Numbered from the stretch's first letter, positions 21,847-33,178 are shown. The stretch is 64,000 nt of DNA from Candidatus Dojkabacteria bacterium (GCA_030583845.1 CP129478.1:343175-407174), one strand, 5' to 3'. The notes: generated by a model from the sequence alone, not told the origin. Translations and numbers: made by a program.

Positions 21847-21891
21847 CCCCCGCTAACTTATAGTGAGTTCCTCACTATAAGTTAGCGGGGG
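21847..21891 (-). terminator. Family-1 palindromic repeat; probable rpsA terminator (21-bp stem, 3-nt loop)
   Basis: cccccgctaacttatagtgag-ttc-ctcactataagttagcggggg. Preceded on the plus strand by an AT tract (aattaa), which is U-rich in the minus-strand transcript. Lies between the rpsA stop (21916) and the clpC start (21737). Confidence 0.7.
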
Positions 21892-21915
21892 TTTTCGCTT
21901 TGATCGAACCTTCTA

Positions 21916-23160
21916 TTAGTCTGAAGGGTTCTCCTCTTTCAAAGCCTCTTCTACTTTCTCTGCCAATTCTGCAGAGTCTACTGTCTCTGAGCTTGTATCA
22001 TCTGAAGAGATCTTAGACTTCTTAGTCTCGCTGTCCCACTTCAGGCTCAAGCCCAAGTGTCGCTCGGTTGATGAGATCGAAAGGATCTTCACCTTTACCT
22101 TGTCTCCCTGGGATACGATATCTCGTGGATCTCGAACAAGCTTGTCTGACATCTCTGAGATATGCACAAGTCCGTTCAAGCCTTCGTCAATTCTTACGAA
22201 TGCACCGAAGTCCACAACCTTCTGTACCTCACCGTCGACAACATCGCCAACCTTATATTTAGCAATAAGCTCTGACCATGGATCTGTGAGCAATCTCTTG
22301 ACGCTGTAGGCTACTCGCTTACCACCATCTGTGATGCCGATAACCATAACCTGAACAGTGTCACCCACTTTATATAGGCTTTCGATATTCTCAACCTTGT
22401 CCCATGATAGCTCTGAGAGGTGTACAAGTCCCTCGAGTCCCTGAGCATTAACGAAGATACCGAATGGTGTAATACCGCTAACTTCTCCCTTGAGTACATC
22501 ACCCTCTTTGACAGACTTAAGAGTCTTCTCTCGTCTCTCGAGGTCTCTCTCCTGGGTAACCATCTTCTCTGAGAGGATAATCCTATTCTTCTCGCGGTCG
22601 AGCTCAATAATTCTTGTCTTGATAGTCTCACCAACCAGACTGGTTAGCTTCTTCTGTACCTTAGCAGAGATATCCTTACCAACCTGTCGAACACCATTTA
22701 CATACACTCGCTGCGCATCAAGCTGTGATGTAGGGATAAAGCCTCGTACATCGCCCTTAAGCTGCACGATAACACCACCGTTGTTTGACTCTACAACTGT
22801 AGCCTCAACAACATCGTTATTTGTCTTAGCCTCTTCAAGCTCTAGCCAGACACCTGCCTGCTGTGTCCTGCGCACTGAGAGAATCAGCTGACCCTCTTCG
22901 TCCTCTGGACGTACAACATAAACTAAAAGTGTGTCGCCTTCCTTCAAGCTGTTGACGTCGATCATATCCGACTTCAGCTCTCGCCCAGCAACAATTCCCT
23001 CTGACTTGTAGCCAACATCTACGATGATAGCTCCAGGCCTGATATCGACCACCGTGCCCTCAACAATCTCACCTGAGGTGAGGCGCTTTGGCTGGTTTGA
23101 GTCGTCTGCAATGAATTGATCCAATTGTGAATACAACTGGTCCGCGTTTGTTTTTGCCAT
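21916..23160 (-). CDS. rpsA: 30S ribosomal protein S1
   Basis: 414 aa with four recognisable S1 RNA-binding repeats (GxV motifs, e.g. GEVSGITPFGIFVNAQGLEGLVHLSELS). Confidence 0.9.
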   Translation of the reverse strand: MAKTNADQLYSQLDQFIADDSNQPKRLTSGEIVEGTVVDIRPGAIIVDVGYKSEGIVAGRELKSDMIDVNSLKEGDTLLVYVVRPEDEEGQLILSVRRTQQAGVWLELEEAKTNNDVVEATVVESNNGGVIVQLKGDVRGFIPTSQLDAQRVYVNGVRQVGKDISAKVQKKLTSLVGETIKTRIIELDREKNRIILSEKMVTQERDLERREKTLKSVKEGDVLKGEVSGITPFGIFVNAQGLEGLVHLSELSWDKVENIESLYKVGDTVQVMVIGITDGGKRVAYSVKRLLTDPWSELIAKYKVGDVVDGEVQKVVDFGAFVRIDEGLNGLVHISEMSDKLVRDPRDIVSQGDKVKVKILSISSTERHLGLSLKWDSETKKSKISSDDTSSETVDSAELAEKVEEALKEENPSD

Positions 23161-23302
23161 AGTAATTCATAGCCTCGGATTTACTGGCTCCACAGTACCG
23201 GTAATTCCATATGTTAATTGCCTGTGGATTTATGGGGCGATTATAGCACGGGAGCTGGGTTTTGGGGAAGGTGGTTAAGGCTGCGCTGAGGTCAGTCATT
23301 AC

Positions 23303-24193
23303 CTAACTCTGCAATGTCAGAAAAGCCTGACTCTCATCAAGTGGGTAGCCTGCCAGATTGAGTAGCCTCATTAAATTTTCATCTGTGCTATCTGCTTCAA
23401 ATGATAGTTTTTCATAGCCGGCATTCATCATTGCACTCATTGCGTACTCAACATATGTTTGAGACTGTTCCGTTGTAGCGGGCGCTAGCCAGAAGTCGAG
23501 TAGGAACAGCTCCCCGTCTCCATCGCTCTCTTCCAATATTATGTATCCTATAATTTTACCTTCCAACTTGAAACAGAGCGAAAGCTGCTTATTTATCGCT
23601 TCGCTGGACATATCTCTATCCCAATACTCTTTGTAAATTGACCCAACTACTGGGTTGTGAGGGTGACAATCAGCATATTTCTGCAAAGCTAGATCAGAAA
23701 GCTCCGCTGCCGCCGCTTTATCAAGAGCTTCGAGCTTAGTCGCCACAACCCTCTCTGGAAGCGACACATCCTTCGTTACAAAGCTGTAGTGAAGTCCTAC
23801 TGTGCCTTCATACGTTTTCATCACCACCTTGAAGCCGTTATCGCTTAAGAAATTAAGATACTGCTCATGCGATACGTCATGCCCTGCCTGAAGCGGTAAA
23901 GACCTTTCATGCGATATCTCGAAGGCTTTGTTAAGTATAGGCTCAAGCTGGTTAGTGCTACCACTGTCAAAAAGAAGCATATTGAAATAGAGAACTTTAT
24001 CGTGAACTGCCCTACTCCAGAGCGTTAATATTCCTACTTCTTGCTGTTCTTGTGTACATCGGAACGCTTTGTGGAATGTTGTTGATTCTGGAGATGGCAT
24101 TCTTTGATAGAAGGATCTCTCCTCACCAAAGGCATTAGCAAGTTTGGTGTCGATTTCTGAGTATTGGCTTTGGTTGATTTCGTGGTATTCCAT
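23303..24193 (-). CDS. Hypothetical protein (296 aa)
   Basis: ORF only; possibly acyltransferase-like (IGYIILEESDGDGELFLLDFWL), but not supportable from sequence alone. Confidence 0.4.
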   Translation of the reverse strand: MEYHEINQSQYSEIDTKLANAFGEERSFYQRMPSPESTTFHKAFRCTQEQQEVGILTLWSRAVHDKVLYFNMLLFDSGSTNQLEPILNKAFEISHERSLPLQAGHDVSHEQYLNFLSDNGFKVVMKTYEGTVGLHYSFVTKDVSLPERVVATKLEALDKAAAAELSDLALQKYADCHPHNPVVGSIYKEYWDRDMSSEAINKQLSLCFKLEGKIIGYIILEESDGDGELFLLDFWLAPATTEQSQTYVEYAMSAMMNAGYEKLSFEADSTDENLMRLLNLAGYPLDESQAFLTLQS

Positions 24194-24326
24194 GGTTCTA
24201 TTTCGATTATAGCATCAGCTGTGAAAGCCCAGGTCAATCGGGCTAGTAATATAACGGCGTTACCTGATGTTAGTAAGCGCGTATTTATGAGTGTCTGTTC
24301 TTTGAAAAAGAAAATAGGAGATAAAA

Positions 24327-31242: not shown

Positions 31243-31313
31243 ACCTAAGTGGATTCGAACCACTGACCTCCTCATTGCAAATGAGGCGTTCTAGCCAACT
31301 GAACTATAGGCCC
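31240..31313 (-). tRNA. tRNA-Ala (anticodon UGC), in the 16S-23S spacer
   Basis: Acceptor GGGCCTA/TAGGTCC with G3:U70, anticodon stem CCTCA/TGAGG, loop TTTGCAA (TGC), T-arm AGTGG-TTCGAAT-CCACT, discriminator A. Confidence 0.85.
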
Positions 31314-31365
31314 GCGACTATATTCATCTCAACCCTATCTCCCATTCATTACCTTAGCACACCAG

Positions 31366-31439
31366 TGGGCGTACCAAGGCTCGAACTTGGGACCTCAGTC
31401 TTATCAGGACTGCGCTCTAGCCAACTGAGCTATACGCCC
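31366..31439 (-). tRNA. tRNA-Ile (anticodon GAU), in the 16S-23S spacer
   Basis: Acceptor GGGCGTA/TACGCCC, D-arm GCTC-AGTTGGCTA-GAGC, anticodon stem CAGTC/GACTG, loop CTGATAA (GAT), T-arm CCAAG-TTCGAGC-CTTGG. Confidence 0.85.
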
Positions 31440-31605
31440 ACTAGAGTTCCAAGTTCTGCGGGCAAGATTAAGGTTGCTTGCAAGTTTATTCCAATGTAAT
31501 GAGCTCAACCTTTGAAAACTTAAAAGTGGTAGGAAAGTCTCTCGTGCAACGCCTAAGCGATGCAATAAATGACCTAGACAACCTTCTAGGTTAGGTTTTC
31601 TCCTT

Positions 31606-33178
31606 AGAAAGGAGGTAATTCAGCCGCAGATTCCCCTACGGCTACCTTGTTACGACTTTACCCCAGTCACAAGCATTACCCTCGTAGCCCCATATAAATA
31701 TGAGACCCCTTCAGGTATTACCTGCTTCCATGGCATGACGGGCGGTGTGTGCAAGACCCGAGAACGTATTCACCGCAGCATGGCTGATCTACGATTACTA
31801 GCGAATCCAACTTCATGAGGTCGAGTTGCAGACCTCAATCCGAACTGAGACCGGTTTTTTAGGATTAGCTCCACCTTGCGGTTTGGCTTCCCGTTGTACC
31901 GGCCATTGTAGCGCGTGTGTCGCCCAAGATATAAAGGCCATAAGGACCAGACGTCATCCCCACCTTCCTCAACGTTTTACCGCTGCAGTTTCCCAAGACA
32001 CTTGTAACATGGGATAGGGGTTGCGCTCGTTTCGGGACTTAACCCTACATCTCACGACACGAGCTGACGACGGCCATGCAGCACCTGTACTTGATCCAGC
32101 CGAACTGACTCCAGTCTTTCGATAGGATACGATCAGTATGTCAAATCTTGGTAAGGTTCTTCGATTGCCATCGAATTAAACCACGCGCTCCTCCGCTTGT
32201 GCGGGTCCCCGCCAATTCATTTATGTTTTAGCCTTGCGGCCGTACTCCACAGGCGGGATGCTTATCGCGTTAGCTGCGCCACTCAGCACTTCCGTCTATG
32301 TTCCGAAGAATATAAACAGTCATGCCAAACAGCTAGCATCCAGAGTTTACAGCGTGGACTACACGGGTATCTAATCCGTTTTGCTACCCACGCTTTCGAG
32401 CCTTAGCGTCAGAACAGAGCCAGTGAATCGCCTTCGCCTCTGGTGTTCCTCCCGATATCAACGTATTTCACCACTCCACCGGGAATTCCATTCACCCCTC
32501 TCTGTCTCAATCCTAGCAGTTTCCAATGCACTTCCGAAGTTAAGCTTCGGTCTTTAACAAAAGACTTGCTAAGACGCCTACGCATCTCTATACGCCCAGT
32601 AATTCCGGATAACGTTCGCACCCTACGCATCACCGATGCTTCTGGCACGTAGTTAGCAGGTGCTTATTCATGTGGTACCGTCATTTATTCGTCCCACATA
32701 AAAGGAGTTTACAATCCTAAGACCGTCGTCCTCCACGCGGCGTCGCTGCGTCAGGGTTGCCCCCATTGCGCAAGATTCCTAATTGCTGCCTCCCGTAGGA
32801 GTATGGGCCGTGTCTCAGTCCCATTGTGGCTGTTCGCGCTCTCACGCCAGCTACCCGTCTTAGCCTTGGTGAGCTATTACCTCACCAACTAGCTGATAGG
32901 ACGCAGGCCCCTCCCGAAGCGCCGGAGCTTTACCCAGTCCGCTAACTTATAGTGTCGACGACACTATAAGTTAGCGGACTGGGACTATCGGATATTACCA
33001 CTCCTTTCGAAGAGCTATTTCCGACTTCGGGGCAGGTTACCTACGCGTTACTCACCCGTTTGCCACTGTCACAAAGAGTTTCTTTGGCCGAAGCCTCCGA
33101 AACAAAGTGACCGTTCGACTTGCATACCTTAGGCACGCCGCCAACGTTCATCCTGAGCCATGATCAAACTCTCATTGA
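31606..33178 (-). rRNA. rrs: 16S ribosomal RNA (about 1.57 kb)
   Basis: 5' end: RC of 33150-33172 is AGAGTTTGATCATGGCTCAGG. 3' end: RC of 31606-31660 is AAGTCGTAACAAGGTAGCCGTAGGGGAATCTGCGGCTGAATTACCTCCTTTCT. The internal 806R-site GGACTACACGGGTATCTAATCC is present (32356-32377). The 530-loop region is divergent, and a 22-bp perfect hairpin is embedded at 32933-32983. Confidence 0.9.
32933..32983 (-). repeat. Family-1 palindromic repeat inside the 16S rRNA gene (V2 region): 22-bp perfect stem, 7-nt loop
   Basis: cccagtccgctaacttatagtg-tcgacga-cactataagttagcggactggg. It shares the exact 16-nt core ccgctaacttatagtg (and its complement) with the intergenic hairpins at 21847 and 27375. Confidence 0.85.

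Follow-up and report, generated by a model that had tools for sequence, protein, structure and literature searches.

We report a short, perfectly paired hairpin that occurs three times in a 64,000-nt stretch (hereafter, the window) of the chromosome of a Candidatus Dojkabacteria bacterium, a member of the Candidate Phyla Radiation (CPR). Two copies, T1 and T2, lie between genes and have the anatomy of intrinsic transcription terminators, and the third forms the apical part of helix h9 in the 16S rRNA. All three belong to one sequence family. In other Dojkabacteria, orthologous sites have or lack the hairpin, its core recurs at other 16S helices, and this core is more conserved than the base or the apex of the stem. 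Sequence comparisons thus indicate a module that is both gained and lost at the tips of hairpins already present. Our preferred interpretation, to which we attach about as much belief as doubt, is that the three hairpins are copies of a short, noncoding, non-autonomous palindromic module similar to repetitive extragenic palindromes (REPs) or miniature inverted-repeat transposable elements (MITEs), and that the core is the part that is recognized.

One hairpin family at three loci

Proteins encoded in the window match NCBI entries WKZ31454.1 and WKZ31455.1 of Candidatus Dojkabacteria with complete identity. The following features of the window are needed for the discussion.

21845..21893, no strand assigned: module copy T1, a perfect 23-bp stem with a 3-nt loop
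27371..27421, no strand assigned: module copy T2, a perfect 24-bp stem with a 3-nt loop
32933..32983, minus strand: module copy in the 16S rRNA, the apical part of helix h9 (V2), with 24-25 perfect Watson-Crick pairs
31608..33179, minus strand: 16S rRNA, the sole 16S gene of the window and host of the h9 copy
21916-23160, minus strand: rpsA (ribosomal protein S1, four S1 domains), predicted to end at T1
26379-27335, plus strand: alpha/beta-fold hydrolase gene, convergent with the rRNA operon, predicted to end at T2
27436-27552, minus strand: 5S rRNA, last gene of the rRNA operon, predicted to end at T2
27850-31003, minus strand: 23S rRNA of the rRNA operon

An earlier note on this DNA had claimed that three loci carry an identical 16-nt core and its complement, and that they represent one sequence family and not gene-by-gene convergence. 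Both claims agree with our counts. The 16-mer CCGCTAACTTATAGTG and its exact complement form three inverted pairs, at 21850-21888, 27377-27415 and 32939-32977 (half-sites 21850-21865/21873-21888, 27377-27392/27400-27415 and 32939-32954/32962-32977). A search of the window for half-sites that tolerated up to two mismatches gave these 6 matches, all exact, against an expectation of 0.02 derived from shuffled sequences, and none of 100 shuffles reached 6. The cores are separated by exactly 7 nt in every copy, and in RNA this stretch would add two base pairs and a 3-nt loop each time. Perfect pairing also extends outward, giving arms of 23 nt (21845-21867/21871-21893), 24 nt (27371-27394/27398-27421) and 25 nt (32933-32957/32959-32983). 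The stems are therefore perfect, as the earlier note had stated in describing stems of 20-22 bp and loops of 3-7 nt, but its lengths were too short. Predicted folding energies are -40.3, -38.8 and -43.3 kcal/mol for T1, T2 and the 16S copy, respectively.

A covariance model trained on seven family members assigns E-values of 1e-15 to 1e-18 to the three window copies and of at least 0.04 to everything else. Across the family, the core, consisting of CCGCTAACTTATAG(TG) and its complement, is 14-16 bp long and nearly invariant, with a few variable pairs on each side and a small loop. When the seven copies are compared, 15 core pairs are nearly constant; the pairs that vary, three at the base and three at the apex, show compensatory changes. 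The covariation score is 0.349, versus 0.147 in shuffled alignments; none of 500 shuffles equaled it.

Two degenerate loci also resemble the family.

47703..47824, no strand assigned: diverged family member with arms CCCCGCTAACCTATAG and CTTATAGGTTAGCGGGG and an interior of ~89 nt
39335..39382, no strand assigned: possible decayed member downstream of ftsH, GCCGCTAACCTATAAC ... GGTAGCGGC; weak

The first locus lies between divergent genes of unknown function and is a weak match to the covariance model; its interior was unique in our search, and only the arms are repeated. The second has 2 mismatches to the 14-mer core.

Could strong terminator stems have converged by chance, or could the 16S copy be an assembly artifact? 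This genome is rich in long palindromes: the window contains 13 perfect inverted repeats (arms of 12 nt or more, loops of 45 nt or less; 0.2 per kb), where we estimate a chance expectation of ~0.2 in total and where other Dojkabacteria have a median of 0 per 8-kb locus (L004-L057). The lineage thus seems to accumulate or perfect long palindromes. However, 32 identical nucleotides at three places compare with an expectation of 0.02 matches, contigs produced by four unrelated studies contain this core, and a second assembly agrees, including at both 16S junctions (see below). We regard chance and artifact as effectively refuted.

Intergenic copies have the anatomy of terminators

Gene and rRNA annotation confirmed the positions that had been given for the intergenic copies, one at rpsA and one between the hydrolase gene and 5S rRNA. 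T1 follows the rpsA stop codon by 22 nt and is upstream of a ClpB-like gene. T2 lies 36 nt past the hydrolase stop codon and 15 nt past the 3' end of 5S rRNA, which closes a minus-strand operon of 16S, tRNA-Ile, tRNA-Ala, 23S and 5S. Both stems are preceded by A/C runs and followed by G/T runs, and both score as terminator-like on either strand, with tails TTTTCGCTTT, TTAATTTAGA, TTTTTAGTTG and TTTTGTTTTA. Thus, T1 and T2 each consist of a G+C stem-loop followed by a U-rich tract downstream of a gene, which is the arrangement of a Rho-independent terminator. From this anatomy, T2 is probably a bidirectional terminator common to the hydrolase gene and the rRNA operon, and T1 probably terminates rpsA transcripts. 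The rRNA operons of other Dojkabacteria end in ordinary terminators of 9-10 bp.

When the window was scanned with Rfam 15, only rRNA and tRNA reached threshold, and no curated family fits the module. The best sub-threshold matches around T1 were to generic hairpins (Srn266, 37 bits, with a cut-off of 63) and microRNA precursors.

The third copy extends helix h9 of the 16S rRNA

The third hairpin spans positions ~197-247 of the 16S rRNA and is followed by a conserved UAAAG and then by a tiny second hairpin. Because of this UAAAG and the alignment to E. coli rrsB, we assign the hairpin to helix h9 of V2 and not to h10. In the Rfam alignment, its lowest pairs fit a 10-bp consensus stem, above which there are 29 nt versus 2 in the model. 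The V2 location claimed in the earlier note is thereby borne out. The copy pairs perfectly over 25 bp, entirely in Watson-Crick fashion and without G-U pairs, its core is identical to those of the intergenic copies, and it lacks a U tract and is therefore no terminator. No other insertion in the window's rRNAs is shared with its intergenic DNA; a single 15-mer in h6 is at chance level.

To ask whether the helix is lineage-typical, as the earlier note had suggested, we compared V2 segments. These are 35-39 nt long in 44 other Dojkabacteria (of the 54 loci described below), whereas the window's segment has 63 nt and those of L044 and L036 have 90 and 93 nt, so that the window's helix has a lineage-specific apical extension of about 25 nt. 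The h9 copy is therefore extra sequence at a helix tip that is absent from related rRNA genes, as is expected of an intervening sequence. RNase III substrates comprise about two turns of perfect duplex, and the 24-25-bp stem is long enough.

The earlier note had named an assembly chimera as an outcome that would overturn its reading. In a second assembly (Logan, run SRR24881069), contig L001 reproduces T1 and T2 letter for letter, and contig L058 reproduces the 16S hairpin with both junctions and is anchored in the unique S41 peptidase gene upstream. The chimera objection therefore fails. This run is possibly the genome's own source, so the assembly is independent but the sample is not necessarily so.

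Orthologous intergenic sites in relatives

If the module is transferable, orthologous intergenic sites should carry different hairpins, and this is what relatives show. Five syntenic contigs, one from each of five runs, encode an S1 protein 90% identical to that of the window (L002 also represents this group; the runs of L002/L068-L072 and of L003, a further relative, include SRR23332755, SRR31691759, SRR33509048 and SRR25057012). In these five, the rpsA-clpB spacer contains a different hairpin, CCTCATAGTCCTTTCG...CGAAGGGGCTATGAGG, and the hydrolase-5S spacer contains CCCCCCTTCGCTCTTACGAGCTCGGGGGG, with flanks AAAACAAAA and a 5S end recognizably as in the window. The module was not found in relatives whose S1 protein is 80-81% identical. 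By contrast, L003, whose hydrolase is 72% identical, has the module after 5S, where it ends the rRNA operon. Relative to T2, the L003 terminator has one compensated pair change and, as its sole other difference, a position that pairs as G-U on the rRNA-sense strand. Between the two terminators, 1 of 30 core positions is changed, versus 5 of 9 in the apex. These syntenic contigs reach only into 23S, and the S41 peptidase that adjoins the window's 16S gene has no close homologues.

Recurrence at other 16S helices

We fetched 54 loci (L004-L057), nearly all labeled Dojkabacteria, by means of a divergent 20-mer at the 515 site of 16S rRNA; this sample is biased to rRNA loci, and its best 16S identity to the window is ~85%. 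The core is present at 16S helix tips in three of these species, which supports the view that the hairpins form a family. In L044 (CAYZTC01...), it forms h6, with perfect pairing, and, in diverged form, h9. In L026 (WJKH01...), it forms h6, with three G-U pairs. In L034 (JBMNHC010000001.1), it is found in h6 and at the tip of h44. L044, and perhaps L036 (JAFGIK010000067.1), have older, imperfect versions in h9. Since h6 has the same length across species (51-61 nt), the module replaces the native h6 helix rather than adding to it. The carriers are scattered over a rough 16S tree and use different helices, and the module is absent from most Dojkabacteria sampled. The core is conserved among species whose 16S rRNAs are only 78-85% identical.

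The clearest case is the comparison of L034 with L039. Their 16S genes are 96-100% identical in most 50-nt windows and nowhere less than 86% identical, except in h6 and at the h44 tip. In L034, h6 is swapped at equal length, and the h44 tip has 52 nt more than in L039, with the core at the flanks. As judged from this alignment, L034 has undergone a clean, recent replacement in h6 and an insertion in h44 relative to the near-identical L039 gene.

Other observations on these 16S genes concern the helices and the sampling signature. In L036, h6 is nearly deleted (a 17-nt segment versus 51-61 nt elsewhere), and the long hairpin extensions of h9 (93 nt) and of the h44 tip (89 nt) are unrelated to the module. 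Therefore, the h6, h9 and h44 tips also vary independently of the module. At the 515 primer site, the window's 16S gene (32633-32652) has GTGCCAGAAGCATCGGTGAT in place of GTGCCAGCAGCCGCGGTAAT, a primer mismatch. The exact 20-mer retrieves 54 species-representative genomes, almost all of them Dojkabacteria/WS6, and so is a clade signature; some of these genomes are mislabeled Saccharibacteria, Chloroflexota or Burkholderiaceae.

The preponderance of rRNA copies raises the question of whether the rRNA came first. According to this explanation, the module originated in an early Dojkabacterium, where it natively extended one of the variable 16S helices. It then moved between 16S genes as acquired rRNA segments recombined homologously, and in the present lineage it was copied by ectopic gene conversion between hairpins onto nearby terminators, with no dedicated mobility machinery. 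Copies in rRNA occur in four separate lineages, and intergenic copies occur only in two close ones. The replacement of h6 at unchanged length is what allelic exchange through flanking homology would produce, the imperfect h9 versions in L044 and perhaps L036 could be the older forms, and the window copies lie within 11 kb, with one ending the rRNA operon. However, homologous exchange cannot reach three different helices, or terminators without shared flanks. Also, the window's h9 copy, being perfect, free of G-U pairs and identical to the intergenic copies, looks recent and not ancestral, and sampling was biased to rRNA loci. On balance, we consider an rRNA origin improbable.

A second explanation, which we judge to be equally unlikely, is that the hairpin is a functional RNA tag. 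A trans-acting factor (RNase III, for instance, or an RNA-binding protein peculiar to the lineage) would recognize it in ribosome-related transcripts; the 16S copy would be a miniature intervening sequence cut from the precursor, and T1 and T2 would act as processing or stability signals for the 3' trailer and the rpsA mRNA. The three perfect copies are all in ribosome-related transcription units, stems of 23-25 perfect pairs suffice for RNase III, and the core is conserved beyond the needs of pairing among distant species. In addition, the non-Watson-Crick pairs on the rRNA-sense strand comprise G-U pairs in L026 h6 (3), the L003 terminator (1) and L034 h44 (2), but only 1 A-C pair, in L034 h44. 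This ratio of 6 to 1 points to selection on RNA, but it is suggestive only. On the other side, the helix that contains the module differs by species and most Dojkabacteria lack the module, so no conserved ribosomal role can depend on it. Moreover, close relatives carry unrelated hairpins at the same two 3' ends, the diverged copy at 47703-47824 is flanked by divergent genes with no known function, and our analysis yielded no candidate protein.

Searches for further members

Outside the hairpins, the window contains no solitary half-site word of at least 11 nt, and core sub-words (8-12 nt) occur at chance frequency. An exact two-arm pattern (30 specified bases) had no matches in public genome and metagenome contig collections, which did not include the source genome or its closest relatives. 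A relaxed pattern matched seven metagenome loci and one viral locus. Nearly all of these are AT-rich GCTAATTTATAG palindromes with no rRNA nearby, and we take them to be chance matches; the genes that neighbor two of them are unrelated. A blastn search of a phage collection with the 51-nt hairpin also gave no match. In the L034 genome, single arms TCCCGCTAGCTTATAGAG and TCCCGCTACCTGTAGTG are located directly 3' of two tandem tRNA-Ala genes, and one of them nearly equals the complement of that genome's h44 arm.

A third explanation is that the core is a DNA uptake sequence for ComEA/ComEC-based competence, whose inverted pairs double as terminators as they do in Neisseria, and that biased uptake accounts for its conservation. 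The window contains ComEC and ComEA genes (7353-9757), the core is conserved across distant species, inverted pairs are located at gene ends, and the look-alikes after the L034-genome tRNA-Ala genes are single arms. DNA uptake sequences, however, occur about once per kb, with many solitary copies. The module's density is roughly ten times too low, solitary half-sites of at least 11 nt are absent from the window with sub-words at chance level, and the core is absent from ~100 kb of relatives' DNA. We therefore consider an uptake function very unlikely.

With respect to MITEs, the module has inverted arms, and the copy at 47703-47824 is of MITE-like size; no target-site duplication is evident there. 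No autonomous insertion sequence with the same terminal repeats was found in the window or in ~570 kb of fetched Dojkabacteria loci. The family is not strictly extragenic, as REPs and bacterial interspersed mosaic elements (BIMEs) are, given the 16S copy and the h6, h9 and h44 copies elsewhere. The ends CGCTAAC and GTTAGCG each match the integron attC consensus (RYYYAAC and GTTRRRY) at 5 of 7 positions, but we rejected this identification. Such sites are imperfect palindromes of 57-141 nt with extrahelical bases, located at the ends of cassettes beside an integron integrase, whereas the stems here are perfect, without bulges, and there is no cassette array; the only tyrosine recombinase gene in the window (43251-44138) is of the Xer type. 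We also dropped, as short, partial and without supportive context, similarities to the core of T7/SP6 promoters (CACTATA), to the promoter of yeast mitochondria (TATAAGT), to recombinase sites of the dif/lox type and to the ends of attC (CTAAC...GTTAG).

A model for propagation onto hairpin tips

Under our preferred interpretation of a REP/MITE-like module, we infer that the module spreads as DNA and is added to the tips of hairpins already in place, with the conserved core recognized by whatever enzyme copies it. A copy that lands on a terminator stem with C/G and A/T runs would become the stem of a strong bidirectional intrinsic terminator, as we predict for rpsA and for the hydrolase gene and rRNA operon. 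At the apex of a 16S helix that is exposed to solvent and variable in length, a new copy would be either retained in the mature rRNA as a tolerated small expansion or cut from the precursor. The targets would be h9 in the window and h6, h9 or h44 in other species. In E. coli, 16S rRNA tolerates insertions at h6 and at the V2 helix h10, a neighbor of h9, with a wild-type growth rate (PMC2441807).

Several observations weigh against this model. No transposase, REP-associated tyrosine transposase (RAYT) or other mobilizing candidate is present among the 51 open reading frames (ORFs) of the window, of which the recognizable ones are all housekeeping genes and the rest are unknown. Copy number is low: the 64-kb window has only three perfect and two degenerate copies, ~100 kb of syntenic DNA from relatives has none, an additional 21 kb of the L034 genome has none except the two single-arm look-alikes, and the pattern scans of public collections revealed no further convincing members. 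All three perfect copies lie within 11 kb and in ribosome-related transcription units, which fits a functional tag or local gene conversion. Copying of whole units would predict similar loops, yet the loops of the window copies are unlike one another despite their identical cores. Most instances outside the window are in rRNA, although the loci were fetched through a 16S signature and so are biased in this direction. Finally, the flanks of the short copies are themselves palindromic (C/G runs, A/T runs or the h9 stem), and therefore no target-site duplication can be read. Consequently, the earlier description of a dispersed element stands only in part: the hairpin behaves as transferable at orthologous sites, but with three perfect and two degenerate copies in 64 kb and none in the syntenic DNA, "dispersed" is weakly justified.

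Comparison with known systems

REP/BIME, ERIC and Correia/NEMIS sequences are small palindromic intergenic repeats located 3' of genes; once transcribed, they fold and act as terminators or mRNA-stability elements, or serve as RNase III substrates. The sequences of REPs and MITEs are constrained by a transposase, and they are present in hundreds of copies together with a RAYT or a parent insertion sequence. In the REP/BIME case, the gene for the RAYT, a Y1 HUH transposase, is typically flanked by REPs, and copies number tens to hundreds per genome. The module resembles them as a small palindromic repeat at gene 3' ends. It differs in that REPs and MITEs are extragenic by definition and are imperfect palindromes or terminal repeats with target duplications, whereas one module copy is in 16S.

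Copy-and-paste hairpin modules are known mainly from mitochondria and Rickettsia. Rickettsia palindromic elements are ~100-150 bp long, imperfect, very numerous and confined to Rickettsia. Like the module, they are a bacterial palindromic family that enters nonintergenic targets, including RNA genes, and is tolerated there; the module is shorter (~40-50 bp), and we saw no sequence relation. In R. felis, 728 copies include 85 in ORFs and 3 in RNA genes (PMC1166351).

In sponge mitochondria, hairpin elements are found both in spacers and at variable positions within rnl and rns (PMC2800124). More generally, mitochondrial hairpin elements, double-hairpin elements and GC clusters (in sponges, chytrids, yeasts and green algae) resemble the module in being short, noncoding and located in spacers and length-variable rRNA sites, and mitochondrial hairpin elements are likewise patchy among related genomes, with no mobilizing enzyme identified (PMC2800124). 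However, these elements are organellar, usually number tens of copies and are often double or triple hairpins, whereas the module is in a free bacterial chromosome, with few copies seen, longer perfect stems and a core kept across deeply diverged species. The earlier note's view that a palindrome in an rRNA variable helix is unusual should be tempered in light of the precedents in Rickettsia (PMC1166351) and sponge mitochondria (PMC2800124).

Intervening sequences of rRNA and the rRNA insertions of CPR bacteria also share features with the h9 copy, being extra sequence at an rRNA helix tip that is patchy among relatives. The CPR insertions are long (counted from 100 nt upward) and mostly introns, some with homing endonuclease genes (PMC9297842, PMC11270868), and these two papers do not mention short palindromes shared with terminators. 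Classical intervening sequences are ~90-750 nt and are defined by excision, whereas the h9 extension is ~29 nt and is shared with terminators. The tips of h6, h9 and h44 are also sites of eukaryotic and archaeal small-subunit expansion segments. Unlike the module, expansion segments are lineage-wide, vertically inherited and not copies of an intergenic terminator sequence.

Other palindromes and loci of the window

A second palindrome family has copies at 36497-36558, 60816-60881 and 62764-62795, which share the center CCCACTTGC(G)AAGCAAGTGG; the arms of two copies contain CGACC(A/C)CCCGACC repeats. The copies are directly 3' of polA, an ABC-transporter gene and hsp20 and have no U tracts, and so are unlike classical intrinsic terminators. 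The window includes a Rho gene (16032-17282). We considered this family and the other long palindromes as relatives of the module, but rejected them because the sequences are unrelated.

A perfect palindrome of 52 bp without a spacer (CTCCGAGATTAAGAGCTCAGACCCGA|TCGGGTCTGAGCTCTTAATCTCGGAG) occupies 52455-52506; its neighbors are a convergent RecF-like gene on one side and, on the other, a 600-aa ORF without a Pfam match. Another perfect palindrome, of 25 bp (14117-14183), extends into tRNA-Ala(GGC) as far as the third base of that gene. The corresponding position in the L034 genome, between the M23 peptidase gene and leuS (L074 18360-18560), has a second tRNA, by eye tRNA-Ala(CGC). In a metagenome contig (L062, Ga0123353_10540582), an 84-nt perfect palindrome (1601-1684) extends to the end of the 1684-bp contig and could be a hairpin telomere or an assembly artifact; its GCTAATTTATAGCGGGG arm loosely resembles the module.

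The window's 23S rRNA is 3154 nt long. Its main excess is a 131-nt insertion (30596-30726) after E. coli position ~270, and four smaller insertions follow positions 1207, 1501, 1592 and 1871; none is derived from the palindrome families. The region at 43251-49339, which may be an integrated element, begins with the Xer-type recombinase gene and a tRNA-Ile(TAT), an anticodon that is rare in bacteria, and continues with a run of ORFs without Pfam matches (45025-49339), within which the diverged module copy (47703-47824) is located. The polymerase and 5'-3' exonuclease domains of DNA polymerase I are encoded by separate ORFs (36557-37672 and 37852-39309) with a gap of ~180 nt between them, and an ATP-dependent DNA ligase gene (35208-36473) adjoins them.

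Implications

Variable helices of rRNA are usually viewed as drifting slowly by substitution and slippage. Here, a defined block that is identical to terminator stems of the same genome has been installed at helix tips of an essential 16S gene. The helices concerned differ between lineages of this candidate phylum, and one installation can be dated to the split between 16S genes that are otherwise ~96-100% identical. In practical terms, blocks of this kind affect 16S phylogenies and chimera checks for these organisms by distorting V1/V2 and V9, and the perfect 25-bp duplexes may be cut in mature rRNA.

If the block is mobile, it would provide a concrete and testable route for the origin of rRNA expansion segments, and would extend to the CPR a phenomenon known from mitochondria and Rickettsia. 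More tentatively, and with doubt outweighing confidence, we propose that the core is the site of a Dojkabacteria-wide factor, either a DNA enzyme that acts on hairpin tips or a protein that binds or processes RNA. In that case, the module would act as a portable element of rRNA expansion, a mobile palindrome that repeatedly extends surface helices (h6, h9 or h44) of the sole 16S rRNA and doubles as a terminator. If this is true, Dojkabacteria would offer a living bacterial case of rRNA expansion segments born from selfish hairpin DNA.

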